Assembly (NCBI GenBank): GCA_052387115.1
Contig: JBQTJM010000184.1
Span: forward strand, 1 to 24,000
DNA from: Gammaproteobacteria bacterium
GTDB lineage: Bacteria; Pseudomonadota; Gammaproteobacteria; JACCXJ01
DNA: 24,000 nt
Reading direction: 5' to 3'
Shown here: piece after piece, positions 6,314 to 23,337 of the stretch
How positions within the stretch are numbered: the stretch's first letter is position 1
Layout: each line of letters starts with the position of its first letter
Notes under the pieces: model-generated
Databases searched by the model: none
What the model was told of the DNA's origin: nothing
The model's input: the letters and a program-made list of their open reading frames with translations, nothing else
Made by a program: the position numbers and the translations under genes

Positions 6314-6597
6314 CCTGATAGCATAGTCGATCCCTGCGTCGGCATACTCAATGAGCGTCCGCCCCCGGCGGGAGGCGATCTCGTCTCCGTCTCCCGGGCG
6401 CGTGACTTTGGAGCTCGGCCGCATCCACGGCGCCGGGGTGGGGCATCCGCCGCCCTGATCGGGGTGTGATAAGGTATGTAGCCTCGGTCCCCCGCTTCTC
6501 TGACGCGGGTCGGGGCGTGGCCGGAACCTGTTCCGAACCGGTGAGGACCGATTCATTGCCGCGCGTCACCGAGGCACGAGCTTCCATAGCCACCCCT

Positions 6598-7903: not shown

Positions 7904-8515
7904 ATGAGATACGTGTTCGATCCCGCGCGCTTGTGCGAAATCTCGAAGATGGGCATCGGCCTGCCGCACTCGGAGATGTTTCAGGTCATTACGGACGAGC
8001 TTGCGAGAAGCTTTCCGGGCCGGATCATTACCGAGCCCGAATGGTTCTTCAACAATGCCGGGGGGGCGATGGGTATGTTGACCATCCTGTACGCCTCGTG
8101 GAAGGAGTATCTCATTTTTTTCGGCACTCCCATCGGTACCACCGGGCATACCGGCCGGTACTCGTTCATCGAGGACCATTGCTTTTTGCTTGACGGCGAG
8201 ATGTGGTATTACGCCGCCGGGGAGACCGACAAAACGGTTTATAGACCCGGGGATACGATCTATCTGGGCAAGGGCCAGGCGAAGTGTTATCGCATCGTCG
8301 ATCACGCCTGGATCCTCGAGTATGCCCGTGGCCCGATCGCGACCATGCTGCCGTTCGGCCTCGCCGATTCGCTTTTCAGCACGCTTGATTACACAACCGT
8401 CTTCCGCACCTTCCGGATCTACGGCAGGCATGTGATACGGAACACGTTTCGTCACGTTGCCCGCCGCGCCGGCCAGGAGGCGGAGAAGCGTTCCGGCAGA
8501 TCCGCCGGGCTGTGA
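7904..8515 (+). CDS. ERG2 / sigma-1-receptor family protein (C-8 sterol isomerase-like), lacking the N-terminal membrane anchor
   Basis: ATG at 7904 is preceded by GGGAGGAG (7892-7899). EWFFNNAGGAMGMLTILYASWKEYLIFFGTPIGTTGHTGRY...VYRPGDTIYLGKGQA...WILEYARGPIATMLPFGLADSLFSTLDY aligns with the remembered SIGMAR1/ERG2 core ([40 protein letters not shown]...FYPGETVVHGPGEA...[28 protein letters not shown]). Confidence 0.85.
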   Translation: MRYVFDPARLCEISKMGIGLPHSEMFQVITDELARSFPGRIITEPEWFFNNAGGAMGMLTILYASWKEYLIFFGTPIGTTGHTGRYSFIEDHCFLLDGEMWYYAAGETDKTVYRPGDTIYLGKGQAKCYRIVDHAWILEYARGPIATMLPFGLADSLFSTLDYTTVFRTFRIYGRHVIRNTFRHVARRAGQEAEKRSGRSAGL

Positions 8516-9213
8516 TAGGTCCCGCATAACCGATCCCAGAAGGTGAAGAACTGTCCGTAGTTATACCGAAAATACCAGTGGTGGGCCGTGTGACATCCTG
8601 CATGGTTGACGAAGCTCAATGGAGTCCAGCGGATGCGATCGTGGATCATGACGGCCCAGATCGTCACCAGGGTGACGAAGCCGTTGTATACCCATACGTG
8701 CAGGGGGAACAAGAGCGCACAGAGATGATAGGGCAAGGCCTGTGCAAACGAATCGAGCGGATGAAACGCCAGGCTGGCCAGCGGCGTGGGCTCTCGAAAC
8801 CGGTGGTGGAAGACGTGCAGGTGGCGGTAGAGAAAACGGGTATGCAGGGCGCGGTGGATCCAATAGATGGACGTTTCGGCGATGGCCAGGACGGCGAAAA
8901 TGCTGCCGAGCAGATAGGGCCAACCGTGCTCGGCCACCGAGAAATAGACCTCGCTCGCGCCAGACAGGATCAATACCTCGATCGGCAACATGAGGAGCGC
9001 GTTTCCGGAAACTGAATAGAGCGACCACAACACCGATCTGCGCAGCTCGTCAGCGTCGGGACGGTATCCCGGATGGTGCCTCTCGCGTCGTAAGACGAAA
9101 AACACGAGGTAACTGCCCCCGGCCAGGATCGCATAGAGACAAACCCCGAAGAGCGACAGCATGAGATACAGGCCGGTCAGGCCATGGCTCTCGTGGACCC
9201 AATAGAATACCAT
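8452..9213 (-). CDS. Fatty-acid-hydroxylase superfamily sterol desaturase, SC5D/ERG3 (C-5 sterol desaturase / lathosterol oxidase)-like
   Basis: There are three His boxes: HRALH, HVFHHRF and HTAHHWYF. WIHRALHTRFLYRHLHVFHHRFREPTPLASLAFHPLDSFAQALPYH...PLH...IWAVMIHD...HTAHHWYFRYNYGQFFTFWDRLCGTY is colinear with the remembered human SC5D block ([46 protein letters not shown]...IWTISIHDG...[27 protein letters not shown]). ATG at 9213 has GGAAGGG 8 nt upstream. Confidence 0.83.
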   Translation of the reverse strand: MVFYWVHESHGLTGLYLMLSLFGVCLYAILAGGSYLVFFVLRRERHHPGYRPDADELRRSVLWSLYSVSGNALLMLPIEVLILSGASEVYFSVAEHGWPYLLGSIFAVLAIAETSIYWIHRALHTRFLYRHLHVFHHRFREPTPLASLAFHPLDSFAQALPYHLCALLFPLHVWVYNGFVTLVTIWAVMIHDRIRWTPLSFVNHAGCHTAHHWYFRYNYGQFFTFWDRLCGTYHSPADLPERFSASWPARRAT

Positions 9214-9315: not shown

Positions 9316-10230
9316 TCACCTACATTCCAGAAGGTCCTTAAATTCCTGCCCTGCGCTCTGATAGGCCAGCGCCCTGGCCTTCTGCAGGTTGTCATGGGCC
9401 TCGGCGTAGTAGGCGGGGGACTGCTTGATGGCCTCGACGAAGTAGTCCTCTGCCTGCCGGTACTTCCCGTCGATCAAGCAGAGATAGCCCACGCTGTTCG
9501 AGGCACGTGATTCGGGCATGATGCGCGTGAACGCATCCATCGCCTTGTTATATCGTCCGGTGCGCACGTACAAGAGGCCGAGGTTGGACCAGGCCTTCTC
9601 GTGCCGGGGATTGATCTGTAATGCCCGCTCGAATTGCGACTGCGCACCCTCCAGGTCCCCGGCCGAATACTTCGAGTAGCCGAGGTTGGTCAACAACATG
9701 GCGGCGTCGGGCCGCTCGCGGAGGGCCGCTTGATAATGCTGTTCGGCGGCCGGGTAGTCGTGGTTCAGATCGGCGATGACGCCGAGCCCGTTGTGGGCAC
9801 GCCAGCGGTGCTCATCGGCGGCCAGGGCCCTTTCCAGATACGCCTTGGCCTCCTCCGGTTTCTTGTCGCGGAGCAGCACGAGACCGATACCCTCGAGCGC
9901 GCCGGCATGCTCCTTGGCTATGGACAGGGTCTCGTGAAAGGCGCGCATCGCCAGTTCTAGATTGCCCTTGAGGTAGTGGATGACGCCGACCATATAGTGG
10001 GCGTCCGCCTTGTCCTCCTCCAGACTCAGGACGTTCACATACTCGAAGAGCGCCCGGTCGAGCTCCCCCTGGCGCAGCGCGGCGTCGGCGCGCGCCATGC
10101 CCACCTCCGCCTGCTTGGTGTCGTCCTGTGCTTCCGTCGTGGCGGCCGGCTCGAACAGCGTCGCGCAACCCCCCATCCCGATCGCGGCCATGAGCACCGC
10201 GCCCCTGAAGATACCGAAATGCATCGTCAT
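9316..10230 (-). CDS. tadD: TadD-like TPR-repeat lipoprotein
   Basis: There are multiple TPR units (repeated A..Y..AL...P....A..NLG patterns). The N-terminus MTMHFGIFRGAVLMAAIGMGGC is lipobox-like. ATG at 10230 is preceded by GGAGGTG at 6-nt spacing, and I prefer it to the track's TTG at 10260. It is the last gene of the tad operon. Confidence 0.8.
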   Translation of the reverse strand: MTMHFGIFRGAVLMAAIGMGGCATLFEPAATTEAQDDTKQAEVGMARADAALRQGELDRALFEYVNVLSLEEDKADAHYMVGVIHYLKGNLELAMRAFHETLSIAKEHAGALEGIGLVLLRDKKPEEAKAYLERALAADEHRWRAHNGLGVIADLNHDYPAAEQHYQAALRERPDAAMLLTNLGYSKYSAGDLEGAQSQFERALQINPRHEKAWSNLGLLYVRTGRYNKAMDAFTRIMPESRASNSVGYLCLIDGKYRQAEDYFVEAIKQSPAYYAEAHDNLQKARALAYQSAGQEFKDLLECR

Positions 10231-10260
10231 GGTCTTCACCTCCCCCGATCTCTTCCCCAA

Positions 10261-10300: not shown

Positions 10301-11263
10301 TCAATGCGCCGTCTGAAACACGCGGATCACGGCCAAGACCGCCGGCCCCACGGCCACGAGGAAGAACGACGGCCACAGGCAGAACACCATCGGAAAGATC
10401 ATCTTCGTTCCGATCTTCGCGGCGGCCTCCTCGGCGCGCTGCATGCGCTTGTCGCGGAACTCCTCCGAGTAGATCCGCAAGGTATCCCCGATACTCGTTC
10501 CGAAGCGCACGCTCTGGCACAAGAGCGAGACCAGGCCGCGGATATCATCGAGCCCGGTGCGCTCCGCCAGCGCCTTCAGGGCGTCCGTGCGCTCCACCCC
10601 CGCCTGGATCCCCGCGTTCACGAGCGCCAGCTCCATGGCGAGCGCCTCGTGGCTGACCACGAGCTCCTCGGCCACGCGCTGGAGCGCGGCGTTCAAGCCG
10701 AGCCCCGCCTCGGTACAGGTCACGAGCAGGTCCAACGCATCCGGGAAACCGTTCATGATCGCGCGCCTGCGGCGCTCGGCGCGGCGGCTAACATACAGGT
10801 TCGGCAGGAACAGGGCGACGCCGCCTGCATAGAGCGCGGCCATCAGGACCTCTGTCGTGCCCAATCCCGGGAAGAACGTCGCCCCGAGCACGACCACGGC
10901 CGCCACGGACAGCAGCAGTATCACCTTCGCCGCGTAGAAGGTCATGAGGGCGGTACCGGAGCGGAACCCCGCCTGGAGGAGCTTGGCCCGCATGCCGGAA
11001 CGTTCCACATCGCTCTTGGGCAGGACATAGGCGCCGAAGGGCTCGACCACCTTCGCGAGGTGCGCGAAGCGACCCCGGTCTTCGCCGCTCACGCCGGAGA
11101 CCGCCTGGAGGCGGCGCCGGAACGGATCGAAAACGCCGGTCACGACCACGAGGACGCTCAGGCCGAACAAGGCGGCGGCGAAACCGATGCTCCCGGCGAG
11201 CAGCCAGCGCGCTTGCGCCGGATCGCTCGCGATCTGCGAAAAGAACTGCGCCAGGTATTCCAT
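10301..11263 (-). CDS. tadC: TadC (type II secretion F-family inner-membrane platform protein)
   Basis: 320-aa polytopic protein with GspF-like repeats. It sits directly after tadB. GAGGAG lies upstream of ATG 11263. Confidence 0.9.
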   Translation of the reverse strand: MEYLAQFFSQIASDPAQARWLLAGSIGFAAALFGLSVLVVVTGVFDPFRRRLQAVSGVSGEDRGRFAHLAKVVEPFGAYVLPKSDVERSGMRAKLLQAGFRSGTALMTFYAAKVILLLSVAAVVVLGATFFPGLGTTEVLMAALYAGGVALFLPNLYVSRRAERRRRAIMNGFPDALDLLVTCTEAGLGLNAALQRVAEELVVSHEALAMELALVNAGIQAGVERTDALKALAERTGLDDIRGLVSLLCQSVRFGTSIGDTLRIYSEEFRDKRMQRAEEAAAKIGTKMIFPMVFCLWPSFFLVAVGPAVLAVIRVFQTAH

Positions 11264-11274
11264 TGCCTATCTCC

Positions 11275-12246
11275 TCACACCTCGATCCGGATGATCTTCC
11301 TCATCCACAGGATCCCCACGGTCATGTTGACGCAGGCCCCCAGGATGAGCCATCGGCCGAGCGGGTCCTTGGTGAGACCCGGCAAGTAACCGGGCTCTGT
11401 GACGAATAGCGCCCCGACCAGGACGAAGGGGAGCAAGACCAGGATCCAGGCCGACATGCGGCCCTCCGCCGACAAGGTGCGGACGCGCCGCTGCAGGCGG
11501 AAACGCCCGCGCACCACGGCCGCGATCTTGTCGAGGATCTCCGCCATATTGCCCCCCGTCTCGCGCTGGATGACGACCGCCGTCACCACCGTCATGAAGC
11601 TCATGCTGGGCACCCGCTCGAGCAGCGCCAAGAACGCCGCCTTGGTGCTCATGCCATAGTTGATGTCGGAGTAGGCGGTGCGGAACTCGCCCGCGATGGG
11701 CTCGGCGCTGTCCTCGGCCACGAAGCGCATGGCCTCGGTGAACGGCAAGCCCGCCCGCAGCGCCCGGCTCATGACCGCGAGCGCATCGGGGAGCTGCTCC
11801 TCGAAGAGCGCGATGCGCCGGTTGCGCTTGAGACGGATGTTCAGGATGGGCAGGAAAAACGCCGCAACCGCCGCCGGTAGGCCGAACAGCGGTTCTTTGG
11901 TCAAGGCGGCCACGATGACGCCCGCGCCGAGCGCCAGCCCGGCCGCCTGCAGGACCACGCGGTACGCGCGGGTCTTGAGTCCCGCCTGTTCGACGAGCCT
12001 GGCCAGGCCTTCCATTCCGGGCAGGCCTTGCATCGCTTTTCCGAGCGGCGGAAGCTCTCGCCAGTACTTCTCGCGCAAGAGCGATACCGCCGCGGGATCC
12101 AGGGCATCCTCGACCTCCCGCACGCGCCTGCGCAACCGCCGGGCGATATGCGCGTCGGTGCCGAAGGTCGGCACGAACATCGCCATCGACAGGAGCGCGA
12201 CGGCGACGAAGACCATGATGAGGAGAATCGTGTAGTCGGTCCACAT
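11275..12246 (-). CDS. tadB: TadB (type II secretion F-family inner-membrane platform protein)
   Basis: 323-aa paralogue-type partner of TadC. GAGGAG lies 8 nt upstream of ATG 12246. Confidence 0.9.
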
Positions 12247-12258
12247 GGTCGTCGCTCC

Positions 12259-13635
12259 TCAGCCGATCCGGCGGCCGGGCTTGAAGAGGCCCAGGTCCAG
12301 GCTCATCCCGCGGCGCTTCAGGTGGTCGTGGAATTTCGGCACCATCCCGGTGGCCTGGAAACAACCCAGGACCTCGCCGCCCTGGTCCACGCCGGTGCGC
12401 TCGAACTTGAAGATCTCGGACATGGTGACGATGTCGCCCTCCATCCCCTGGATCTCCTGCACGCTCACCAGCCGCCGCCTGCCGTCCTCGTTGCGCTCGA
12501 GCTGCACGACCAGGTGGATGGCCGAGGCGATCTGGGCGCGCATGGCGCGGATGGGCAGCTGCAGCCCGGCCATCATGACCATGGTCTCGAGCCTGGAGAG
12601 CGCATCGCGCGGGCTGTTGGCGTGTACGGTCGAGAGCGAGCCCTCGTGTCCGGTGTTCATGGCCTGGAGCATGTCCAGGGCCTCGCCCGCGCGCACCTCG
12701 CCGATCACGATGCGGTCGGGCCGCATGCGCAGGCTGTTGCGCACCAGATCGCGCTGGGTGACCTCGCCCTTCTGTTCGATGTTGGGCGGCCGGGTCTCCA
12801 GGCGCACGATGTGCGGCTGCTGGAGCTGCAGCTCGGCCGAGTCCTCGATGGTGACGATGCGCTCGTAGGGCGGGATGTAGCCGGACAAAATGTTCAGCAA
12901 CGTGGTCTTGCCGCTGCCCGTGCCCCCCGACACCAGGACATTGAGCTTGGCCTTCACGACCGACTGCAGTACCTCCATCATCGGCTGGCTGGTGCTGCCG
13001 ATGCGGACCAGGTCCTCGGCGCGCAGGCGCTCCTTCGGGAAGCGCCGTATGGACAAGGTCGGGCCATCGATGGCGAGCGGGGGGATGATGGCGTTGACGC
13101 GCGAGCCATCCTTGAGCCGCGCGTCCACCATGGGGCAGGACTCGTCGATGCGCCGCCCGACTCTAGACACGATGCGGTCTATCATGCCGAGGACATGGGC
13201 GTCGTCCTTGAAGTGGACCGCCACGCGCTCGAGCTTCCCGCCGCGCTCGACATAGACCGACTCACGGCCGTTGACCAGGATGTCGGTGACGGCGGGATCG
13301 GCCAACAGGGGCTCGAGCGGCCCGAGGCCCAGGACCTCGTCCTCGATCTGCTTGATGACGCGCTGGCGCGACGGCGCGTTCAAGGGCGCGGACTCCTCGT
13401 TCATGAGCCGGTTCGCGACCTCGCGGATCTCGCCTTTGGCCTGCTTCTCCTCGATGCCGGTGATGAGCGAGAGGTCCACGACCTCGAGGAGCCGGGCGTG
13501 GATGCGGTGCTTCCACTCGCGCTCCTGGGCCTGGTTGCGCTCGGCCGCGGCGGATACGAGGCCGGTCGGCGCGCTCCGGACGGCGGTGGGCGGGTCCACC
13601 TCGCCGTTCCCTGTCTTGCGATAAAAGGCTTCCAT
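12259..13635 (-). CDS. tadA: TadA/CpaF secretion ATPase
   Basis: Walker [15 protein letters not shown]. Asp and His boxes are present ([12 protein letters not shown]; [13 protein letters not shown]). 458 aa. GAGGAG lies upstream of ATG 13635. Confidence 0.95.
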
Positions 13636-13638
13636 GTC

Positions 13639-14835
13639 TTATCTCCTCAACAAAAGCTGGTTGAATACCGCGCCCAACTTGCCCTTGCGCTCGGCCTTGG
13701 GTCTTGGCGCGAGCCGCTCGGCGATCTCGATGATGGCCTTGGTGACGGCGGCGCCCTTGGCGCCCTCGCACAGCGGCAAGCCGAGGTTGATGGCCTCGGA
13801 CACGCGCCGGTAATCGTTCGGGATCTCGACGAGCGAGCCGGGCTTCAGCGCCGCCTGGATCTCGGCGCTGCCGATCGGGCCGTTCTTGTCGTGGCGGTTG
13901 ACGACGAGGTGGATGCGGTCGTTGGGGATCGCGAGGTCGCGCGTCGCGACCCGCACCATGCGCTTGGCATCGCGCAGATGGGTGATGCCCTGCTGCATGA
14001 CGATCAAGAGGTTCTCGGCGCGCTCCATCAGGCGATGGGTCACGGGATCGATCTGGCGCGGGAGGTCCACGACCACATGTTCGAAGTCCCCGACGACCTG
14101 GCCCAAGAGCCGATCGAGCCGGTCCTCCGGGATCTCCCAGGGCAGCGCCAGCTCCTCGGACATGGAGGCCAGGAGGCGCAGCCCGCTCGGGTGCTTGAGC
14201 ATATAGCCTTCGAGGGCCACGGTGTCGATGTGGTCCGCGTTGGCCAGTGCCGCGACGACCCCGTCACGCGGGGTGAGGTCCAGATACAGCGGCAAGGTCC
14301 CGAACTGCAGGTCCATGTCGAGTAGCGCGGTCCGCATATGGAGGTGACTCGCCATGCAATGGGCGACGTTGCAGGCCAGAAACGAGGCCCCCGAGCCGCC
14401 CTTGGCGTTGATGACCGCGGTGAGACGGCCCTTCCCTTTCTGTCTCTGCGCCTTGGCGCCGAGCTCCTCGGCCATCCGCTGGACCGAGGCCAGGATCTCG
14501 GCGCGTTCCACGGGGTGCGTGAAATAATCGCGGGCGCCGGCCTGCATCGCCATGCGGATCACGCGGGCGTTATCCTCGGCCGGCCCGATGACGATGAGCT
14601 GCGGCCGCTCGGGGTGCGCCATGACCTCCCGGAGCTCGGTCTCCCAGAACTGGCTGAGATCGAGGATCAAAACGTCGGGCGGCGTGTCCACCCCGTACAG
14701 GGGGTCCAAGTGGCCATTGACCACGACGCGCGTCCGCACCTCGACGCCCGGCTCCGACTTGAGCATCAGCTCGATGTACTCGACCTGCAGCCGCGAGCGG
14801 CTGGAGATCAATATCTTGCATCTGGGTTTCATCAT
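13639..14835 (-). CDS. tadZ: TadZ/CpaE (receiver-like N-domain plus ParA/MinD-type ATPase domain)
   Basis: Deviant Walker A VINAKGGSGASFLACNVA. The N-terminal about 120 aa are CheY-like (KILISS...DVLILDL...VIGPAED). It lies immediately upstream of tadA. Confidence 0.9.
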   Translation of the reverse strand: MMKPRCKILISSRSRLQVEYIELMLKSEPGVEVRTRVVVNGHLDPLYGVDTPPDVLILDLSQFWETELREVMAHPERPQLIVIGPAEDNARVIRMAMQAGARDYFTHPVERAEILASVQRMAEELGAKAQRQKGKGRLTAVINAKGGSGASFLACNVAHCMASHLHMRTALLDMDLQFGTLPLYLDLTPRDGVVAALANADHIDTVALEGYMLKHPSGLRLLASMSEELALPWEIPEDRLDRLLGQVVGDFEHVVVDLPRQIDPVTHRLMERAENLLIVMQQGITHLRDAKRMVRVATRDLAIPNDRIHLVVNRHDKNGPIGSAEIQAALKPGSLVEIPNDYRRVSEAINLGLPLCEGAKGAAVTKAIIEIAERLAPRPKAERKGKLGAVFNQLLLRR

Positions 14836-14872: not shown

Positions 14873-15325
14873 TCAAGTGCACGGGTTGGGGCCGGGGGGG
14901 GCGTATCCCAGGCTTTCGGCCGGGATGGTCGTGGCGGACGTGAAGACCTCCTCCTCGAGCGTGACGTTCATGAAGGGGATGAGGAGTCGGTGCTCGTAAC
15001 CGCTGATGCTTACCCGGACGGCCACGGTACCCCCGGTCGTCGGGTCCGGGACGGCCACCACGTTGACCATGCCTGTGGTGAGCCCTTTCAATATCGGGCT
15101 CTCCCCATCCGCCGTCCCGAACACCGCGGCTCGCCTCGCGGTCGCCCAATCGGCCGGGGAGCAGACTGCGGCCACCCGCGCCCCGCGCCGGGTGGCCTCC
15201 GCGATGGTGTTGTAAGCAAACATGGCGCGCGCCACCTCGATCGCGCCGAACAGGATGATGAAGAGCGCCGTGCCGATGATGGCGAATTCGACGGTGTAAA
15301 TCCCTTTCTGCCGCGTGTTCATCAT
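14873..15325 (-). CDS. TadE-like pseudopilin
   Basis: The N-terminus MMNTRQKGIYTVEFAIIGTALFIILFGAIEVARAMF is the TadE/TadG-type signature (G..xVEFA plus a hydrophobic helix). There is an ATGA overlap with the upstream tadE-like gene. Confidence 0.85.
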   Translation of the reverse strand: MMNTRQKGIYTVEFAIIGTALFIILFGAIEVARAMFAYNTIAEATRRGARVAAVCSPADWATARRAAVFGTADGESPILKGLTTGMVNVVAVPDPTTGGTVAVRVSISGYEHRLLIPFMNVTLEEEVFTSATTIPAESLGYAPPGPNPCT

Positions 15326-15828
15326 AAGGCCCTCATCGTGGCCGAAGCCGTCATGTTGATGCCGAAGTCGATGTTTCCGTCTCCGAACCCGAAGGTGGGG
15401 ATGCCGAGGTCGAAGATCGGGTCGTAGTTGTAAGGCGTTCCTGCGCCGACCTGGACCTGCACGTGGACGCCATCTACGGCAGTGACCGTGATCTGTCCCG
15501 TGCTCAGGCCCTGGAGCACCGGATCGCCCGTGCCGCCCGGGTTGCCGTAGACCACCACGTTCCGGGTGGCGGTCCGTTTACCAGCGGTGATGTCAATGAC
15601 TCCGGTCGTCCCCGCGATGGCCTCTTGGGCCAGATACCGCACCCCGTCCCGCACCGCCTTGTGCAGGGTGTTGTACTGATAGAGCCAGCGGCCGGCCTCG
15701 GCGGCAACCAGCATGAGGAGCAAGAGCACCGGCACCGCGATCGCGAATTCGACCATCGCGATCCCGCGCTGCTTCTTGCGGCAACGTCTTTCAGGCGCGT
15801 TAGCGCATCGAGAATCACCGGCATCCAT
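15322..15828 (-). CDS. TadE-like pseudopilin
   Basis: KKQRGIAMVEFAIAVPVLLLLMLVAAEAGRWLY signature. Start taken at ATG 15828 (MDAGDSRC...). The track's extension to 16047 translates a non-coding repeat element and was rejected. Confidence 0.75.
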   Translation of the reverse strand: MDAGDSRCANAPERRCRKKQRGIAMVEFAIAVPVLLLLMLVAAEAGRWLYQYNTLHKAVRDGVRYLAQEAIAGTTGVIDITAGKRTATRNVVVYGNPGGTGDPVLQGLSTGQITVTAVDGVHVQVQVGAGTPYNYDPIFDLGIPTFGFGDGNIDFGINMTASATMRAL

Positions 15829-15837
15829 TCCTTCCAC

Positions 15838-16034
15838 CCGTTCGCCCTGAGCGTAGGCCCGGAGGGCCGGAGTCGAAGGGCGGGGTCGAGGCTCGGAATC
15901 GCGGACTGGTTCGAGACCCCCGAGCCGGGCTTCGACTCCGCGGCTCGCAAAAAAGCCGCGAGCCACTACGCTCAGCCCGAACGGAGATCTGGTTCCATCG
16001 CTCTGAGCCAACCTATCGGGTCGCTCGGTATGAG
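15838..16034 (-). repeat. Structured GC-rich repeat element, copy A (REP/MITE-like), in the 249-nt gap between the tadG-like and tadE-like genes
   Basis: Internal inverted repeat CCGTTCGCCCTGAGCGTAG (15838-15856) / CTACGCTCAGCCCGAACGG (15966-15984), matching 17/19. Nested arms CGGAGTCGAAG (15869-15879) / CTTCGACTCCG (15930-15940). It shares exact inverted blocks with copy B: a 19-mer (15866-15884 = revcomp of 23681-23699), an 18-mer (15970-15987 = revcomp of 23797-23814), an 11-mer (16003-16013 versus 23746-23756) and a 7-mer (16028-16034 versus 23734-23740). Confidence 0.7.
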
Positions 16035-16077
16035 TCCTTCTAAACATGGCTTTGCCTCTCTGTCCTTGGCACGCGGT

Positions 16078-17391
16078 CTACGAATCCCGGCTGTCCGGAT
16101 CCTTGTAGAGCACGATCCTGTAGAGCAAGCCGCCGCCGGCGGGTGGGGGGGTCGTCGCGATGGGTCCGTCGGCCTGGCAATCCCCGACGAGCTGCCCGAA
16201 GATCTCCTGTGTATTGCCCGCGTGGGTAACGGGTCGGGTCATGAAGAAACAGCCGAGACCGAGCACGCGTACGTCTCCTTGACCGTTGGTGGTTCCCGTG
16301 CAATCCCCAATCGGCACGGGCATGACACGGCGCTCGGCTACGCCGGTACCATCCGGCATGGGCGGGTAATCGAACTGCTCGCTGGTCTGACGATCCACAT
16401 AGTCGTCGTAGCAGAAGGTGCAGGTACCGATGGCCGGGTCGGGGTTGGTGTCCGCGCCCTCCGGCTGGCTATACGTGACGGTATCCGCAGGGTAATCCGT
16501 GCTGCTCATGCCGCCCTGGTAGATGCCGAACCGGGTATTGAAGCCCTGAGACACGGGTCCTACCTGGTTTCCGGGTTGTGTGGGGACCGTTTCATCTTCC
16601 AAGCATCCTGAATAGCCGCCGGCCAGGTTTTCGCGAACGCAATCGCCGCCGGGGCAACCGAGACGAATGAGCTGATAGTTGCCGGGCCCGACCTCCCATT
16701 CGCCGTTGTACCGACCCGAATGCGTTTTGAGGCGAACCTCCTCGTTGTCAGCGGGGTGATACCCGAAGCAGGCCCCATCGGAGCAATCCGTGTCTGTGTC
16801 CGCCGCGTCTCCGCACATCATGATCGGCGCGATGTCGCAGACCCTATTCCCGGGTGTGGTATCAATGGGCGCCGGACCCGCCACGGCCGTGCCGCCGATG
16901 TCCTGCTCGTCCCCTACGCCCGGAAGGACGTTGGCGAGCCAGGTGTCCATGGTGAAGCCCGTGGCGCGGGCTCGCACGAACGTCGCGGGCGGGTCGTCGG
17001 TCTCGTCGGCGCCTCCCACGAAGGGGTCGAGCGTCGCGGAGAACTCGAAGCTCAGCGTGTAAGTTGAGTCCCGCAGCTCGCGCTCGACGAAAGTCGAGGC
17101 GCCGGCCGCGGCCGCCACGTGTTCATCGAAGGCGTCCTGGCCCGCCGCTTCCGCCTGCGCCACCGTGCCGTCGTTATTCAGCGTCTTCGCCGCCGACAGC
17201 GCGGCCGCATCGAGCGCGTTCTGCAAATGCGTCTTGTCGACGAAGAGGTGCCCGGACTGCAAGGCCAGGCCCGCCATCCCGATGATGGCGAGCATCCCCA
17301 CGGCCACGAGCGCGAGGACCGCGCCGCGCTGGCGGCGGGGTCCCCGTACGTCCCTGTGCCCCAGTCCCTTGTGTTTCGTTCCCTTGTCCAT
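16078..17391 (-). CDS. TadG-like pilus-assembly protein (Tad N-terminal domain plus Cys-rich C-terminal region)
   Basis: ATG at 17391 is preceded by AAGGAGGTG at 5-nt spacing. The N-terminus is RRQRGAVLALVAVGMLAIIGMAGLALQSGHLFVDKTHLQNALDAAALSAAK (TadG-type N-domain). The track's TTG start at 17433 was rejected. Confidence 0.8.
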   Translation of the reverse strand: MDKGTKHKGLGHRDVRGPRRQRGAVLALVAVGMLAIIGMAGLALQSGHLFVDKTHLQNALDAAALSAAKTLNNDGTVAQAEAAGQDAFDEHVAAAAGASTFVERELRDSTYTLSFEFSATLDPFVGGADETDDPPATFVRARATGFTMDTWLANVLPGVGDEQDIGGTAVAGPAPIDTTPGNRVCDIAPIMMCGDAADTDTDCSDGACFGYHPADNEEVRLKTHSGRYNGEWEVGPGNYQLIRLGCPGGDCVRENLAGGYSGCLEDETVPTQPGNQVGPVSQGFNTRFGIYQGGMSSTDYPADTVTYSQPEGADTNPDPAIGTCTFCYDDYVDRQTSEQFDYPPMPDGTGVAERRVMPVPIGDCTGTTNGQGDVRVLGLGCFFMTRPVTHAGNTQEIFGQLVGDCQADGPIATTPPPAGGGLLYRIVLYKDPDSRDS

Positions 17392-17429
17392 CTCGCACCT
17401 CCTTGCTGTCCCTTTGCGCCTACTCGGCG

Positions 17430-17714
17430 TCAATCACCGATATTGATACGAATGGGCTGGTCGACCACCTCCGGCTTGGCGATATCGCCCCGGTAGATCT
17501 CGAGCGCCCGGTTACCCCTGGTTCCGTCCAGCCTCTCCGGCGGGTCCACCGGCGGATGGCGGGAGGCCTCGGGGTTGTAAGTCTGGGCCTTGACCATATT
17601 GCGGACCGACTTGCCGAAGTCCTGCTCGACCCGCACCGGATCGCTCCAGGTGCAAGCCGTGAGCAATAACGCGGCCGACAAGACCGCACCCGAGCGTTTG
17701 ATAGTGGAGATCAT
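17430..17714 (-). CDS. Small tad-locus lipoprotein (family not recognised; positional analogue of RcpB/CpaD-type secretin partners)
   Basis: MISTIKRSGAVLSAALLLTAC carries a good lipobox (LTAC). GGAGGG lies 7 nt upstream of ATG 17714. It starts 15 nt after the secretin stop. Confidence 0.7.
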   Translation of the reverse strand: MISTIKRSGAVLSAALLLTACTWSDPVRVEQDFGKSVRNMVKAQTYNPEASRHPPVDPPERLDGTRGNRALEIYRGDIAKPEVVDQPIRINIGD

Positions 17715-17729: not shown

Positions 17730-19394
17730 TCACAGATCATGTCCGAACTTGCCCCCCTCGGGGACGCCTTGGGGTGCGCCGCTCTCGAAGCGCGGGGCCG
17801 GCGGTGCGGGGGGCGGCGACACCTGGCCCTCCGAGCGGCCGAGGAGATAGAACTCCAGGTCGCTCGGCGGCACGAAGGAATCCGTCGGCAACTTCACCTG
17901 CTGCGGTTGGATGGGGCGCGCGAGCCTAGGGGTGACGAAGATCACCAGCTCGGTCAGCCCCGAACGGAATTCCTGGCTGCGGAAGAGCTGGCCGATGACC
18001 GGCACGTCGCCGAGCCCCGGGATCTTGTCGATGAACTCGCGGGTGCTCTCGTTGATGAGCCCCGCGATCCCGATGGTCTGGCCGTCCGCCAGCTCGACGC
18101 TGCTCCCGGCGCTGCGCTTGTTGAGCGACGGAATGATGAATTGGCTCTGCGCCTGCGCGACGCCGACGATGACCGCGTTGTCGCGGGACAGCTCGCTGAC
18201 GCTGACGTTGAGCTTCAGGCTGATGCGCCCCGAATCCAGGACCAGCGGGAGGAACTTGACCCCCACCCCGAACTCCTTGAAGACGATCGTCACCTCGCCG
18301 AGGTCGCTCGGCACGGGGACCGGGAATTCCCCGCCCGACAGGAACTCCGCCTCCTGGCCGGTGATCGTGGTCAAGGTCGGCTCGGCGAGCAGCTTGCCGA
18401 GGCCCTTCTGGCGGGACAGCGTCAGCGCGGCCTCGAACAGGTATTCCCCGCTCAAATAGCTCAGGAACACGCCCTTGCCGTCGATGGTCGGGGTCGCGCG
18501 CTGCAACTCTGCGATCGCGGGACCCGAGATGTTGCTGCTACCGCCGCCCCCGAAGATCGGGATTTCCAGCGCCTCCTCGCCGAACAAGGCATCCGGAAAA
18601 CTCAGCCCCCCGCTGTTCGCGCCCTGGATGCTCCTGTCTCCGAAACGAAACAGGCTGGTGTTCGCGTCGAGCCGTTTCAGGACATCACGGGCGATCTCGG
18701 CGACCTTGATCTCCAGCATCACCTGCTGGGCGCCCGCGATCTGCATCATGTTCACGATCGCCTCGGGTCCGCAGCCCTGCTGGCCGCCGCCCGCGGGTTG
18801 CGCGGCGGGGGCCGCGGCCGCACCGAGGCCGAGATCGGACCCCTGGCCGCCCTGGGCGCCGGGGGCGCATTCGGGCAGGAAGCTGGCCGCGAGCTGTAAT
18901 GCGGTGTTCATCTTGACCACGTTCGAGATCTCGCCGTCCAGGATGATCTTGTTCTGGGAGGAATGGACCTTGACGACCTCGCCGGGCAGGAGCTCGTGGA
19001 GCTTAAGCTTGAGGCTCTCGAGATCATGGGTGATCTCGATGTCGAAGGCCTCGAAGATGCGGCCGGGCTTGTCCCACACCACCACGTTGGTGGTGCCGAG
19101 GCGCTTTCCGAGGATGTAGAGCTGATCTCCCGGCATGACCAGGATGTCCGCGATGTCGGGATTGCCGACCGAGACCTTGGCGGCCGCGCGGCTCAGTTCG
19201 ATGATGCCGGATTTGTGCTGCGCGATCTGGAACTTGCCGTGGCGGCTCTCCCGCAAGACCAGGCCCCCCGGCCGCTCTTGGGACCAGGCGGCCGGCGGCA
19301 GCAGGGTAAGCGCTAAGGCGATCCAAATCGAGGTCTTCCACGATCCGGGGCAGCGGCCCGGCAAGGCGCGAAGGCATGGTATTGAAGTGGGCAT
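17730..19394 (-). CDS. rcpA: RcpA/CpaC outer-membrane secretin
   Basis: 554 aa with a signal-like N-terminus. The secretin C-domain reads LLAEPTLTTITGQEAEFLSGGEFPVPV...IPGLGDVPVIGQLFRS...ELVIFVTPRL. Confidence 0.92.
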   Translation of the reverse strand: MPTSIPCLRALPGRCPGSWKTSIWIALALTLLPPAAWSQERPGGLVLRESRHGKFQIAQHKSGIIELSRAAAKVSVGNPDIADILVMPGDQLYILGKRLGTTNVVVWDKPGRIFEAFDIEITHDLESLKLKLHELLPGEVVKVHSSQNKIILDGEISNVVKMNTALQLAASFLPECAPGAQGGQGSDLGLGAAAAPAAQPAGGGQQGCGPEAIVNMMQIAGAQQVMLEIKVAEIARDVLKRLDANTSLFRFGDRSIQGANSGGLSFPDALFGEEALEIPIFGGGGSSNISGPAIAELQRATPTIDGKGVFLSYLSGEYLFEAALTLSRQKGLGKLLAEPTLTTITGQEAEFLSGGEFPVPVPSDLGEVTIVFKEFGVGVKFLPLVLDSGRISLKLNVSVSELSRDNAVIVGVAQAQSQFIIPSLNKRSAGSSVELADGQTIGIAGLINESTREFIDKIPGLGDVPVIGQLFRSQEFRSGLTELVIFVTPRLARPIQPQQVKLPTDSFVPPSDLEFYLLGRSEGQVSPPPAPPAPRFESGAPQGVPEGGKFGHDL

Positions 19395-19536: not shown

Positions 19537-20331
19537 CTAGAGCCGGACCTGGGACCTGTCCACCTTCACCCCGCGGATGATGGTGACGTGGCGGAAGGCC
19601 GGCTTTGGGCGCGCCGGCGCCGCCACCTTGGGTGGCTCGGCGGCTTTCTTCTCCGCCTTGGCCAGGACACTCTCGTCGGTCGGGTTGCGGAGCGCGAGCT
19701 GGACATTGCCCTCGTCGGTGGCCTTGACCAGCCGCTCGGCCTGCTTGGGCGTCATTTCCAGGGTCACGGCCCGCACCACTACCGGCTTGTCCTCTTCGCT
19801 CGCGGCCGTCTGGTCCACCGCCAGCACCCGGAGGTTCTGGAGGATGGTCTGGGAGTGCGAGCGCCGATTGCTGTCGTCCTTGCGGGTCGCGATCACATCG
19901 ACCCGGTTGCCGGGGAGCAGGAACCCCCCGACGCCGATCACGTCGTTGACGCGCACGGTCACGGCCCGCATGGTGGCGGCGACCATCGCGGCCAGGCTGC
20001 TGCCGCCCTGGTGCTCGACCACCCGGCCCTCGATCACCACCTCGTTCGGATAGATGGTCCCGTTCGCGATCTTGCCCTCGACCTGCGCGACCTCGGTGAA
20101 GGCCCCGGCCGGCATCGATGCGCTCGGCCACGGCACGGTCTTGAGCTGGGCCGGCTCGATCTTCTGTGCGAAGGGGATCTCCAGCGCCGCGACGACCACG
20201 GGGGTGGTCTTCTCTTCCACTTTGGCGACCGGGGTGAGGCGGGCCTGGATCCATTGGTTCGCCATCCACGTGGCGCCGGTCCCCAGTCCCACGGCAACGA
20301 TGAACATCATCACGGATCTCTGCTTGAACAT
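19537..20331 (-). CDS. cpaB: CpaB/RcpC Flp pilus assembly protein
   Basis: There is an N-terminal TM segment (MFKQRSVMMFIVAVGLGTGATWMA), then a SAF-like segment (VVVAALEIPFAQKIEPAQL) and an RcpC-type beta domain (RAVTVRVNDVIGVGGFLLPGNRVDVIAT). Confidence 0.9.
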   Translation of the reverse strand: MFKQRSVMMFIVAVGLGTGATWMANQWIQARLTPVAKVEEKTTPVVVAALEIPFAQKIEPAQLKTVPWPSASMPAGAFTEVAQVEGKIANGTIYPNEVVIEGRVVEHQGGSSLAAMVAATMRAVTVRVNDVIGVGGFLLPGNRVDVIATRKDDSNRRSHSQTILQNLRVLAVDQTAASEEDKPVVVRAVTLEMTPKQAERLVKATDEGNVQLALRNPTDESVLAKAEKKAAEPPKVAAPARPKPAFRHVTIIRGVKVDRSQVRL

Positions 20332-20355: not shown

Positions 20356-21717
20356 CTATCGACCGGGCGTTGTGCCCGGAACCACGAAATAATTGTTCCA
20401 CGCCATCTCGATCAGCTCGGGCGTGACGGATGTCTGGCCCAGATACCACGCATGGTCCAGGGCCATGCCCAACAAATCGCGCGGGTGGCAGGGGAGTAGC
20501 GGCACGCCCTCACGATCGTGCAGCGCGAGCGTGAAGCGCAGCGCCTTCGCATCGAACGCGATGTCGCGGTCGGCACATACCCCCTGCCAGATCGCGCCGT
20601 ATTCGTCGCGGCTCAGGGCGCCGAATGGGATCTTGTGGCCGATGCGCCGCAGGAAGGCCTCATCCGCGAGCCGGGCGGGGTCGAGGTTGGTCGCGAAGAC
20701 CAGCACCACATCGAAGGGCACCGGGAAGCGCTTGCCGGAGGCGAGGCTGAGATGATCGATCCGGGTCTCGAGGGGCACGATCCAGCGGTTGAAGAGATCG
20801 ACGGTGGCCGCCCGCTGGCGTCCCAGATCGTCGATGACATACACGCCGTTCGCGGCCTTCATCTGTAACGGCGCCTGGTGCCGGCGCGCGGCCGGGTCAT
20901 AGGCCATCTCCAGCATGTCCATGGTCAGCTCGCCGCCCGTGATCACGGCGGGGCGCTCGCACAGGACGAAGCGCGGATCGCAACCGGTGGTGACCTGGTG
21001 GGACGCCCTGTGTTGCTCCCTCAGGGGCCTGTGGACGATGGGGTCGAAGACTTGGACCTCGGTGTCGCCGACCGCGATGGCATGGGGGATGAGCACCGGC
21101 TCGCCGAGCAGCCGGGCCAGTCGCCGGCAGAGGTAACTCTTGCCGGAGCCGGGGGGCCCGTACACGAAGATCGAGCGGCCCGAGTGCAACGCCGCCCCGA
21201 GCTGGTCGAGGAGGTCCTGCCGGATCACGGTATCGGCGAAGGCCTCGTGCATGCGCTCGTGGGTCACGCGATGGGCGTGGACGCTCTGGGATTTGACGAC
21301 TTCGGTATAGCGAGCAAGGGGGACCGGCGCCGGGCCGATGTAGCCGCTCCGCGCCAACGCCTCTAGGGCGAAGGCGCGCCCCCGATCCGTGAGGGCGTAA
21401 CGCAGTCCGGCCGTGCCCGGCGCCGGTCCCTTGACCTCGATGAGCATCTGGGCGCGGAGCGCACCCACCAGCTCCTCGACGATCGGGCCGCCGAGCGCCG
21501 TGCGGCTCGCGAGCTCACCGAGGTCCAGGATGCCGGCCTCACGCAAGTGCTTCGCCACCAGTTCCTGGAGCAAGCTCTCGCTGAGCCCCGTATCGGCAAC
21601 GGTACGCGGGCGCGGCGCCAATCCGCCCGCTGCCGCCGGCCGTGTGTCCGAGGCGGCCGCGGCCTTCTCGGCCGGATGCGGCCTCGCGTCGATCTTCAAT
21701 GCGTCGATGTTGAGCAT
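20356..21717 (-). CDS. Classic-clade AAA+ ATPase with an N-terminal about 150-aa helix-rich (possibly winged-helix) domain; not part of the canonical tad gene set
   Basis: Walker A GPPGSGKSY, Walker B VYVIDDLGRQ, sensor-1/SRH-like VLVFATNLDPARLADEAFLRRIGHKIPF. 453 aa. GC content matches the host genes. It lies between the methyltransferase gene and cpaB, with a 24-nt gap to cpaB. Confidence 0.85.
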   Translation of the reverse strand: MLNIDALKIDARPHPAEKAAAASDTRPAAAGGLAPRPRTVADTGLSESLLQELVAKHLREAGILDLGELASRTALGGPIVEELVGALRAQMLIEVKGPAPGTAGLRYALTDRGRAFALEALARSGYIGPAPVPLARYTEVVKSQSVHAHRVTHERMHEAFADTVIRQDLLDQLGAALHSGRSIFVYGPPGSGKSYLCRRLARLLGEPVLIPHAIAVGDTEVQVFDPIVHRPLREQHRASHQVTTGCDPRFVLCERPAVITGGELTMDMLEMAYDPAARRHQAPLQMKAANGVYVIDDLGRQRAATVDLFNRWIVPLETRIDHLSLASGKRFPVPFDVVLVFATNLDPARLADEAFLRRIGHKIPFGALSRDEYGAIWQGVCADRDIAFDAKALRFTLALHDREGVPLLPCHPRDLLGMALDHAWYLGQTSVTPELIEMAWNNYFVVPGTTPGR

Positions 21718-21825
21718 TCGTCTTTCCTGCTAGTCAGTGCCTAAACAAACCCGCAGCCCGCAATCCCCTTAGCCGCGATGGAGCCGCCGGAGGCGGGATG
21801 AAAAGAAGCGGGTCCAGGACCGACG

Positions 21826-22539
21826 CTAAAACACATAAGGCATCAACCGCCAACGGACTGATGTGGCATAACGCTGGTAGCGCTCGTCCCGGAGAAGGTG
21901 GCGCTCCTCGAAAATGATCCGTAAGAGCATCATTCCCATCCACGCAACGACTATCGAGAAGTTGTACCAGGACGTGTTGGCCAGTAGATACCCGCTTAAG
22001 GTGACCAAATAACTCGCATACAAAGGGTGGCGGATAACGCCATAAACCCCCTGGGTTTTCACGCCCCTGTTCGCAGGCACGATCCCGAAGCTTCTGTTCA
22101 AGACTAAGGCCCCCGCGATCTGAAGGCAGATCCCGAGCGTCATCACAATGCTGCCGAGGTACGGCGCCAAGCCTTGCATGGAAGGCCGCAGCAATAAAGG
22201 CAAAAACGTTCCTCCCGCCGAAACTGCCCATTCTAGCGGGCTCGTGGACTTGCTCATCTGGTCCCTTCTTACTATAAACATCAGCGCAAGCCAAGCCTCT
22301 GCGAACACCAGCAGCAAAAGAGAGAAGGCGTTGGTCTTTTGGAAACTGGTATAGTGGCTAAATGCGAAGAGACCCCATAACGCCGCCGCGGAAACGTTCA
22401 CGAGCAATATCCGCATGGCAATCAAGACATTCATCATGTTCATGGCTCTATACCTGCCAATAAAACGCATCCAAGAATGCTTGATATGAACCCATAGCCT
22501 GGATGGACCGAAGCGGAATCCAGTAATACGCCCGATCAT
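21826..22539 (-). CDS. ICMT/PEMT-family integral-membrane methyltransferase (isoprenylcysteine carboxyl methyltransferase-like), low-GC
   Basis: The C-terminal signature is TQGVYGVIRHPLYASYLVTLSGYLLANTSW...LLRIIFEERHLLRDERYQRYATSVRWRLMPYVF (RHP.Y ... EE..L ... Y..Y). There are several TM helices. ATG 22539-22537 overlaps the tadV TGA 22538-22536 (ATGA). ATG at 22443 (MNMMNVL) is an alternative start. Hand counts give 30/60 GC on lines 21901-21960 and 22261-22320, against 43/60 on tadV line 22681-22740. Confidence 0.8.
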   Translation of the reverse strand: MIGRITGFRFGPSRLWVHIKHSWMRFIGRYRAMNMMNVLIAMRILLVNVSAAALWGLFAFSHYTSFQKTNAFSLLLLVFAEAWLALMFIVRRDQMSKSTSPLEWAVSAGGTFLPLLLRPSMQGLAPYLGSIVMTLGICLQIAGALVLNRSFGIVPANRGVKTQGVYGVIRHPLYASYLVTLSGYLLANTSWYNFSIVVAWMGMMLLRIIFEERHLLRDERYQRYATSVRWRLMPYVF

Positions 22540-23084
22540 TTATGCAGCCATAGGATCGCCCAAAGCGTCCCGAGCCCGATGGCGAGCGCATAGGGGAAAC
22601 GCCGCGCCGCCGCCTCGCCGCCGCGTGGGCCGGCATGGTTCAGCGTGCCGGTCACGACGAGGAAATTCAGTGTCGCCAGATAACGCCGCGCGAGCTGGCC
22701 GAAGCCCCGGTGGCGCAACAGGATCGCGACCGCCATGACGCCCCCGACGATCAGGGTGAGCGCGGCGGCGACAAGCGTCGCGGAGGGGCCGAGGAAAGCA
22801 CCCACAGCGGCCATGAGCTTCACATCACCCGCACCCATCGCGCCGCGGATATAAAAAGGGACGAAGAGCGCAAGACCGCTGGCCAGACCCAAGAACCCGG
22901 ACCCGAGCGCCTCGAACCCGCTGAAATACGATTGCAGCACGAGGCCTGCGACAGCGCCCCCGAAGGTCACCCCGTTCGGGATGCGGTGATAGCGCAGATC
23001 TAAATAGGCCGCGAACGAGAGCATGAGCGCGAGCTGGCCATGAAGCACCGGTAAAAGGACAAGAGGACTGGGCTCGATCAGCAT
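22536..23084 (-). CDS. tadV: TadV/CpaA-type prepilin peptidase (A24 aspartic peptidase without a methyltransferase domain)
   Basis: The two catalytic Asp contexts are AAYLDLRYHRIPN and GAMGAGDVKLMAAVG. The protein is 182 aa and polytopic, and lies immediately downstream of flp. Confidence 0.9.
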   Translation of the reverse strand: MLIEPSPLVLLPVLHGQLALMLSFAAYLDLRYHRIPNGVTFGGAVAGLVLQSYFSGFEALGSGFLGLASGLALFVPFYIRGAMGAGDVKLMAAVGAFLGPSATLVAAALTLIVGGVMAVAILLRHRGFGQLARRYLATLNFLVVTGTLNHAGPRGGEAAARRFPYALAIGLGTLWAILWLHK

Positions 23085-23172: not shown

Positions 23173-23337
23173 TTACGGAGTAATAGCGGCGGTGTTGGTG
23201 CCGATCGTGGCTGCGACCTGGGTGCCCAAGGCCGTAAACGCACCTACGACCGCGACAGTAACCAAAAACCCGGCCACCGCGTACTCGACCGTGGTCAGGC
23301 CGCTCTCATCACGCACGAAAGAAAGGATCTTGTCCAT
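23173..23337 (-). CDS. flp: Flp-family type IVb/c prepilin (54 aa)
   Basis: Below the ORF-track size cutoff and found by manual translation: MDKILSFVRDESGLTTVEYAVAGFLVTVAVVGAFTALGTQVAATIGTNTAAITP. The Flp motif G/xTxVEYA is followed by a hydrophobic helix. AAAGGAG lies about 8 nt upstream of ATG 23337. The stop is TAA at 23175-23173. Confidence 0.9.
   Translation of the reverse strand: MDKILSFVRDESGLTTVEYAVAGFLVTVAVVGAFTALGTQVAATIGTNTAAITP

Follow-up and report, generated by a model that had tools for sequence, protein, structure and literature searches.

The 24-kb stretch of gammaproteobacterial DNA analysed here (contig JBQTJM010000184.1, positions 1 to 24,000; hereafter the window) carries on its minus strand a complete tad operon, coding for a Flp or type IVc pilus, and inside this operon lies a gene (21826..22443) for a small membrane methyltransferase, hereafter MT. 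Genes of the MT subfamily recur as accessory members of Tad loci in Beta-, Gamma- and Alphaproteobacteria, Myxococcota and Desulfuromonadales, where they are located most often right after tadV, the gene of the prepilin peptidase. Tad loci equipped with a membrane methyltransferase of their own, a new subfamily of a known fold, are apparently undescribed as a type. In fact, the literature on tad or Flp combined with ICMT, PEMT, Ste14, phospholipid methyltransferase or PAP2 gave no description of this association, a result that is provisional because coverage was incomplete, and the Burkholderia ICMT-like gene found in the literature is unrelated to it. The comparative-genomic lead that connects MT with Tad systems is robust; the choice between pilin and lipid as its substrate is argued below from sequence and in conditional terms.

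A scan with one genome per species found 170 relatives of MT, the best 80 of which were taken with 10-kb flanks. Together with three close contigs they form a set of 83 loci, which was searched with the tad proteins of the window; addition of one more locus (L084) gives 84. At least three tad genes were present within 10 kb in 68 of the 83 loci (82%), and among the loci below this number several contigs are too short to tell. The taxa represented are Burkholderiales, Nitrosomonadales, Methylococcales, unclassified Gammaproteobacteria, Rhodospirillaceae, Anaeromyxobacter and Desulfuromonadaceae. The gene orders around MT in the 84 loci were as follows.

tadV, MT, AAA+ ATPase gene directly downstream: 49 loci
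tadV, MT, cpaB: 2 loci
tadV, MT, another gene or the contig end: 2 loci
MT, tadV: 1 locus
MT divergent from tadV (Nitrosomonas, Anaeromyxobacter; with flp genes between them in the Nitrosomonas cases): about 6 loci
tadZ, MT (Methylobacter): 3 loci
tadD, MT: 3 loci
tadC, MT: 2 loci
no tad gene detected: 11 loci

Moreover, the order tadC, AAA+ gene, MT is found in five metagenome contigs (L142, L152, L161-L163), and a 33% identical copy of MT is carried by a Caballeronia plasmid, about 3 kb from tadA-tadE. The maintenance of tad linkage through many rearrangements, together with dN/dS values of 0.1-0.3, indicates on comparative grounds that MT functions in the Tad system. The connection with Tad made in the original prediction, an earlier reading of this DNA, is therefore borne out by the survey.

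Two further arrangements were observed. In L085 (142-1131, protein P0206) MT is fused to a DUF192 domain (COG1430) directly after the 3' end of tadC, and standalone DUF192 genes are located near MT in two Gaiellaceae loci (L050 and L067). Methylobacter and relatives (L045, L053 and L063) have split tad loci with the order tadV-AAA+-cpaB-cpaC-tadG-tadE-tadE-tadZ-MT and no tadA, tadB or tadC within 10 kb; in L045, the sole split locus checked downstream, MT is followed by the housekeeping genes dapA and purL.

The full open reading frame (ORF) of the gene (21826-22539, minus strand) codes for 237 aa, and from the methionine at its position 33 (M33) MT has 205 aa. With 35.5 bits against a cutoff of 25 (E-value 1.5e-8), the protein exceeds the gathering score of Pfam PEMT (PF04191), through a match spanning residues 131-216 of the 237-aa ORF, which is the cofactor half alone; it remains just below that of ICMT (PF04140; 22.8 bits against 24), a family of which many MT homologues carry a precomputed match. 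The NCBIfam models of characterised enzymes score well under their cutoffs: the isoprenylcysteine O-methyltransferase equivalog (NF040696) gives 33 bits against 160, LmtA (TIGR04571) 24.4 bits against 325 (2.1e-5) and MddA (NF045656) 18.2 bits against 270 (1.2e-3), the last two in the cofactor region only, and NCBIfam has no model dedicated to the MT subfamily. A profile constructed from 20 homologues matches Ma-ICMT (4a2n) and the plant ICMT-like subunit 8xku_G; its alignment with the former covers GxYxxxRHPxY...RxxxEExxL, including RHPxY...EE, the motif for the cofactor S-adenosylmethionine (SAM). The AlphaFold model, computed with 79 homologues as input, has a pLDDT of 86.8 and a pTM of 0.84, and Foldseek assigns probability 1.00 to 8xku_G, ICMT 5v7p and Ma-ICMT 4a2n (TM 0.57/0.60), followed by steroid 5-alpha-reductases. 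The 79 homologues have 17 invariant columns, including R138, H139, Y142, E179 and E180, and the motif LNRSFGxVPANRG is specific to the subfamily.

The Pfam, NCBIfam, profile, fold and motif results together show that MT is a separate, probably catalytically active subfamily of the ICMT/PEMT superfamily, in agreement with the superfamily of polytopic methyltransferases originally proposed for it. As modelled, MT has the ICMT/PEMT fold, with five to six helices in the inner membrane, and its SAM-binding motif is intact. Between the helices of the AlphaFold model, Arg/Lys-rich loops (58-68, 115-139 and the C-terminal tail) bear this motif, an arrangement from which the positive-inside rule predicts an active site that faces the cytoplasm at the membrane surface. 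Judging from dN/dS (0.19-0.31 for the gene body against the close relatives L002 and L003 and 0.11 against L004, with similar values in neighbouring tad genes), MT evolves under purifying selection.

The operon around MT includes every expected component, as recognised by Pfam and by the Flp motif: flp, tadV, rcpC/cpaB, secretin, tadZ, tadA, tadB, tadC and tadE/F/G-type pseudopilin genes form one cluster. Its features and the genes just past its end are listed here.

23173..23337, minus strand: flp, Flp prepilin of 54 aa, an ORF whose Flp processing motif reads MDKILSFVRDESG before the processing point and LTTVEYAVAG... after it
22536..23084, minus strand: tadV, prepilin peptidase of 182 aa (Pfam Peptidase_A24, 3.6e-19, no other family)
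22444..22535, minus strand: spacer between tadV and MT, 92 nt, AT-rich (GC about 0.45), probably non-coding (extension not conserved)
21826..22443 with the stop included, minus strand: MT, Tad-associated ICMT/PEMT-fold membrane methyltransferase of 205 aa (Pfam, fold, synteny)
21718..21825, minus strand: spacer between MT and the ATPase gene, 108 nt (no convincing terminator, fold z-score -0.87)
20356..21717, minus strand: AAA+ ATPase of 453 aa (Pfam AAA_16, 7.6e-9)
19537-20331, minus strand: cpaB/rcpC (Pfam RcpC)
17730-19394, minus strand: cpaC secretin (Pfam Secretin)
17430-17714, minus strand: small lipoprotein of 94 aa (lipobox LLLTAC)
16078-17433, minus strand: tadG (Pfam Tad)
15322-16047 and 14873-15325, minus strand: two tadE-like genes (Pfam TadE)
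13639-14835, minus strand: tadZ (Pfam AAA_31/CbiA)
12259-13635, minus strand: tadA (Pfam T2SSE)
11275-12246, minus strand: tadB (Pfam T2SSF)
10301-11263, minus strand: tadC (Pfam T2SSF)
9316-10260, minus strand: TPR tadD-like gene (Pfam TPR), with the operon end at 9316
8452-9213, minus strand: fatty-acid-hydroxylase-superfamily gene, just past the operon end
6466-7878, plus strand: ERG4/ERG24-family sterol reductase homologue (2.3e-74), just past the operon end

The flp gene of the window is 66-72% identical to those of L002 and L003. TadV shows the Asp motifs DLRYHRIPN and GAGDVKL in its translation; with its 182 aa and Peptidase_A24 as sole Pfam match, it has no PilD-type N-terminal methylase domain and does not belong to the bifunctional peptidase/N-methyltransferase family. 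Both this absence and the position of MT inside the operon, between tadV and the assembly genes, had been correctly anticipated. In L003 (2414-2957) the tadV region matches the TadV of the window at 79%, yet only a 66-aa gene is called in the ENA contig, which is probably a frameshift caused by an assembly error or by pseudogene formation. The 94-aa lipobox ORF between the secretin gene and tadG (17430-17714) occupies the position of a CpaD/RcpB-type lipoprotein; it has no Pfam match, and counterparts of 94-96 aa are called in L001, L002 and L003. As for the region past the operon, the host that combines a sterol reductase homologue with a tad operon is a gammaproteobacterial metagenome-assembled genome of about 65% GC. 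A link between MT and these sterol genes, which had been left open earlier, was rejected: they are located 12-15 kb away beyond the whole operon, MT is tad-linked in taxa whose loci contain no such neighbours, and the loci of the relatives, of Oxalobacteraceae, of Nitrosomonas and of others display tad context only.

The start of MT required revision. An ATGA overlap between the tadV stop codon and an ATG exists in the DNA (22536-22539), and it had been taken as the start of MT and as a sign of translational coupling. It is probably not the start: the NCBI protein P0001, identical to MT over its whole length, and nearly all homologues have 205-206 aa and begin at M33 (22443); L002, whose MT is 80% identical, has an in-frame stop two codons 5' of the equivalent Met; the sequence upstream of MT in L004 is unrelated to that of the window; and when the window is compared with L003, the 96-nt extension shows +1 and -1 indels that compensate each other and a dN/dS of 3.9, against 0.31 for the gene body. 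On these grounds we place the start at 22443, 92 nt past tadV. Coupling through the overlap is unlikely, as the 32-codon extension that it would require is not conserved. Since a promoter and terminator scan, as well as folding of the spacers around MT, gave nothing above background, co-transcription with the neighbours stays likely; a ribosome-binding site, AGGAAAG, precedes the ATG of the ATPase gene. The spacers that flank MT also contain an imperfect 21-nt direct repeat (21791-21811 and 22496-22516, 16/21 or 76% identical, 705 nt apart), which could be an insertion scar or chance, and no other scar was found around the gene.

MT is the global GC minimum of the window, with a GC content of 0.532 (21826-22443) against a mean of 0.654 (standard deviation 0.035) over all 618-nt segments of the 24 kb; the next-lowest value elsewhere is 0.565. 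The drop extends from the tadV stop (about 22535) to about 21750, so that the discontinuity first estimated by eye is also present in the computed profile. At third codon positions MT has a GC (GC3) of 0.70, below the 0.74-0.94 of the other tad genes, and at first positions (GC1) one of 0.47. With the codon usage of its neighbours MT would be expected to have a GC of 0.616 and a GC3 of 0.889; thus amino-acid composition accounts for about one third of the deficit and codon choice for about two thirds. Low GC is common to MT of the close relatives L002, L003 and L004 (0.51-0.55), with a GC3 of 0.70-0.74 in L002 and L003, against 0.89 in their tad genes, and of 0.63 in L004, where no tad genes were detected for that comparison. 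In Janthinobacterium, Massilia and many others the GC of the orthologue equals that of its neighbours. The synonymous divergence of MT in L002 and L003 is the same as that of neighbouring genes (dS 0.27-0.68, identity at 4-fold sites 0.64-0.84), and MT was therefore present, already with low GC, in their common ancestor with the window.

The composition of MT fits a source lineage of about 58-60% GC. In L004, MT is 76% identical to that of the window and the tadD-like gene merely 56%; the corresponding identities of L084 are 51% for MT, 53% for tadD and 61% for tadC. In these two loci and in L005, MT is the last gene of a tad operon, after tadD or tadC, and in L004 and L084 native genes show a GC of about 0.57-0.63 and a GC3 of about 0.64-0.76, the latter near the 0.70 of MT. 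The nearest metagenome relatives of the AAA+ ATPase of the window (50-55% identity) have the ATPase gene directly after tadV. Donor-like composition and junctions free of MT make horizontal acquisition the simplest reading: MT of the window lineage would have come from a lower-GC gammaproteobacterial tad locus, and its insertion after tadV, ahead of the ATPase gene, would predate the divergence of the clade. The same slot holds an MT of native composition in Oxalobacteraceae and others. The recent single-gene cassette of the original prediction is consequently retained in part; the foreign composition and the insertion stand, the recent date does not, since relatives at dS 0.27-0.68 share the insertion, and the inserted gene is a regular member of tad loci instead of an unrelated cassette. 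A Pseudoduganella copy of MT outside any tad locus (L039, 9938-12752) is located beside an IS110-family transposase and a truncated amidase, a context which suggests that the gene can move on its own.

The AAA+ ATPase encoded downstream of MT has no NCBIfam equivalog, and its PDB matches are generic AAA+ proteins only. This uncharacterised protein defines one large tad locus subtype, in which its gene is a conserved companion of tadV and MT. In metagenome contigs tblastn confirmed at least 586 relatives, counted over the first 600 pattern matches listed, and the 80 loci kept are mostly tad loci, mostly with the order flp-tadV-AAA+-cpaB-cpaC. In Nitrosomonas and Nitrosospira the ATPase is extended at its N-terminus by a stretch which, judged by eye, resembles an MshEN-type motif for binding of cyclic di-GMP. 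In 37 Oxalobacteraceae-type loci a gene of the PAP2_3 membrane phosphotransferase type (PF14378, 2.4e-24) is located directly upstream of tadV (for example L006, 8264-9334, and also L022, L034, L051 and L083), giving the order flp-flp-PAP2_3-tadV-MT-AAA+-cpaB, in which two membrane enzymes flank the peptidase; no PAP2_3 gene is found between flp and tadV in the window clade.

We propose that MT methylates Flp or pseudopilins processed by TadV at the cytoplasmic face of the membrane, a reading that we prefer and that nevertheless falls somewhat short of probable. The cofactor site would be at the cytoplasmic membrane surface, on the side where TadV removes the leader, and processed Flp, probably together with the TadE/F/G pseudopilins, would reach MT laterally through the inner leaflet. 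Using SAM, MT would methylate them, most likely on the newly exposed N-terminal amine; the Glu5 carboxylate would be a less likely target because the amine alone depends on TadV. MT would in this way supply in trans the N-methylation that PilD-type but not TadV-type peptidases carry out. Pilin methylation is favoured because tadV, the commonest partner of MT, encodes a peptidase that creates a new N-terminus on the cytoplasmic side of the membrane, because the cofactor site of MT is predicted on that same side, and because what Tad peptidases lack in comparison with PilD is a single activity, N-methylation. Tad peptidases are in fact devoid of the PilD methylase domain, and their catalytic Asp residues are located at the interface between cytoplasm and membrane (PMC10191384). 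More tentative is the mechanistic novelty that would follow, namely a trans-acting Tad pilin methyltransferase, not homologous to PilD, in which an ICMT-fold enzyme modifies the new N-terminus of the TadV product or Glu5.

The proposed analogue is the PilD methylase domain, which methylates freshly cleaved pilins with SAM at the cytoplasmic face and is encoded together with the peptidase (PMC10191384). The two are not homologous: the PilD domain is a cytoplasmic loop that binds Zn and belongs to the peptidase chain, and MT is a separate membrane protein of the ICMT fold. With ICMT/Ste14 (Ma-ICMT 4a2n and the Tribolium enzyme 5v7p) MT shares the small polytopic membrane fold and RHPxY...EE; it differs in its low identity (about 19%), in its N-terminal helices and LNRSFGxVPANRG motif, both subfamily-specific, and in having no prenylated CaaX candidate, as the Flp proteins of MT loci end in ordinary residues. 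The structures of ICMT have an active site on the cytoplasmic side that is accessible from the inner leaflet. PEMT/Opi3-type enzymes (PF04191) are the best Pfam match of MT and N-methylate a primary amine at the membrane surface on the cytoplasmic side, a chemistry akin to N-methylation of a pilin N-terminus; MT differs from them in its context, which is a pilus operon and not lipid synthesis. LmtA, a lipid A 1-phosphate O-methyltransferase, and MddA, a methanethiol S-methyltransferase, match MT weakly and only in the cofactor region; MT belongs to neither family, and the two show that the ICMT fold takes O-, N- and S-nucleophiles.

Several observations weigh against pilin methylation. The Flp N-termini are ordinary, and loci with an adjacent MT have the same ones as related loci that lack it (G/LTTVEYAVAG or G/VTAIEYGLIA, the slash marking the processing point); no distinctive Flp feature, such as CaaX or an unusual residue 1, was found in MT-bearing loci. 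To our knowledge, the model Tad systems work without an MT-like gene. The cryo-EM structure of the Caulobacter Tad pilus has no density for a modification (PMC10710030). The linkage is not universal, as the members in L039, L050, L065 and L167 are outside tad loci, and the longer proteins among the best 150 of the 19,303 matches include no TadV-MT (A24) fusion. Among the AAA+-anchored metagenome loci, MT is at the tadV junction in 0 of the 58 with enough upstream sequence, and six loci show it elsewhere within the flanks; these flanks are of 6 kb, so that an MT at the far end of the operon falls outside. Finally, the best Pfam match of MT is a lipid enzyme family, and the PAP2_3 gene beside tadV in Oxalobacteraceae could point to lipid chemistry.

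The last two points belong to an account in which MT is a lipid methyltransferase, acting on an inner-leaflet lipid (phosphatidylethanolamine to its monomethyl form or to phosphatidylcholine, another envelope lipid, or a lipid A-type phosphate) and either tuning the membrane around the Tad machine or providing a donor for phospho-form modification. The weak similarity to LmtA and the members of the family outside tad loci are consistent with it, and the PAP2_3 family, being sphingomyelin/inositol phosphorylceramide synthase-like, keeps lipid or phospho-form chemistry possible in those 37 loci. We consider this account rather unlikely: the similarity to PEMT, ICMT and LmtA is limited to the C-terminal, cofactor-binding half and falls short of every equivalog cutoff by a wide margin, a PAP2_3 gene is absent from that position in the window clade, and there is no obvious reason for a general lipid enzyme to keep its tad linkage through rearrangements, mostly beside tadV.

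The partner of MT may otherwise be the AAA+ ATPase, the two acting on a small molecule or on some further part of the Tad system, as a module for regulation or quality control and not for pilin maturation. Their adjacency in both orders, with MT before the ATPase gene in 49 loci and after it in the five contigs mentioned above, argues for such a pairing, which we nonetheless judge unlikely: Nitrosomonas, Anaeromyxobacter and several gammaproteobacterial tad loci have MT without the ATPase, most AAA+-type loci, within their 6-kb flanks, have no adjacent MT, and apparent AAA+::MT fusion ORFs were rejected as out-of-frame read-through in high-GC DNA. That MT is a recently inserted foreign cassette, a hitchhiker without any role in the Tad system, is highly improbable. 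The strong compositional anomaly, the MT-free junctions of the nearest AAA+-type loci, the weak 21-nt repeat and the IS110 transposase next to the Pseudoduganella copy would all suit a hitchhiker; it is contradicted by the synteny survey, in which 82% of the homologue loci are tad loci, by an insertion common to divergent relatives and kept under purifying selection, and by the probable donor context (L004, L084), which is itself a tad operon.

Many bacteria use Tad pili to adhere, to form biofilms and to colonise, and the reason for the N-methylation of type IV pilins has remained unexplained for more than 40 years (PMC10191384). A dedicated membrane methyltransferase accompanies tad loci in dozens of genera, apparently without having been discussed before; it offers a gene that can be deleted, and loci with and without MT provide a natural comparison for asking whether, and why, Tad pilins or the membrane around them become methylated. 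The tadV/MT/AAA+ ATPase module is flagged here as an uncharacterised part of one large Tad subtype. If the proposal is true, pilin methylation would have been invented twice in type IV filaments, with Tad systems that have or lack MT as natural controls, and the ICMT fold would gain a bacterial class of protein or lipid substrates.

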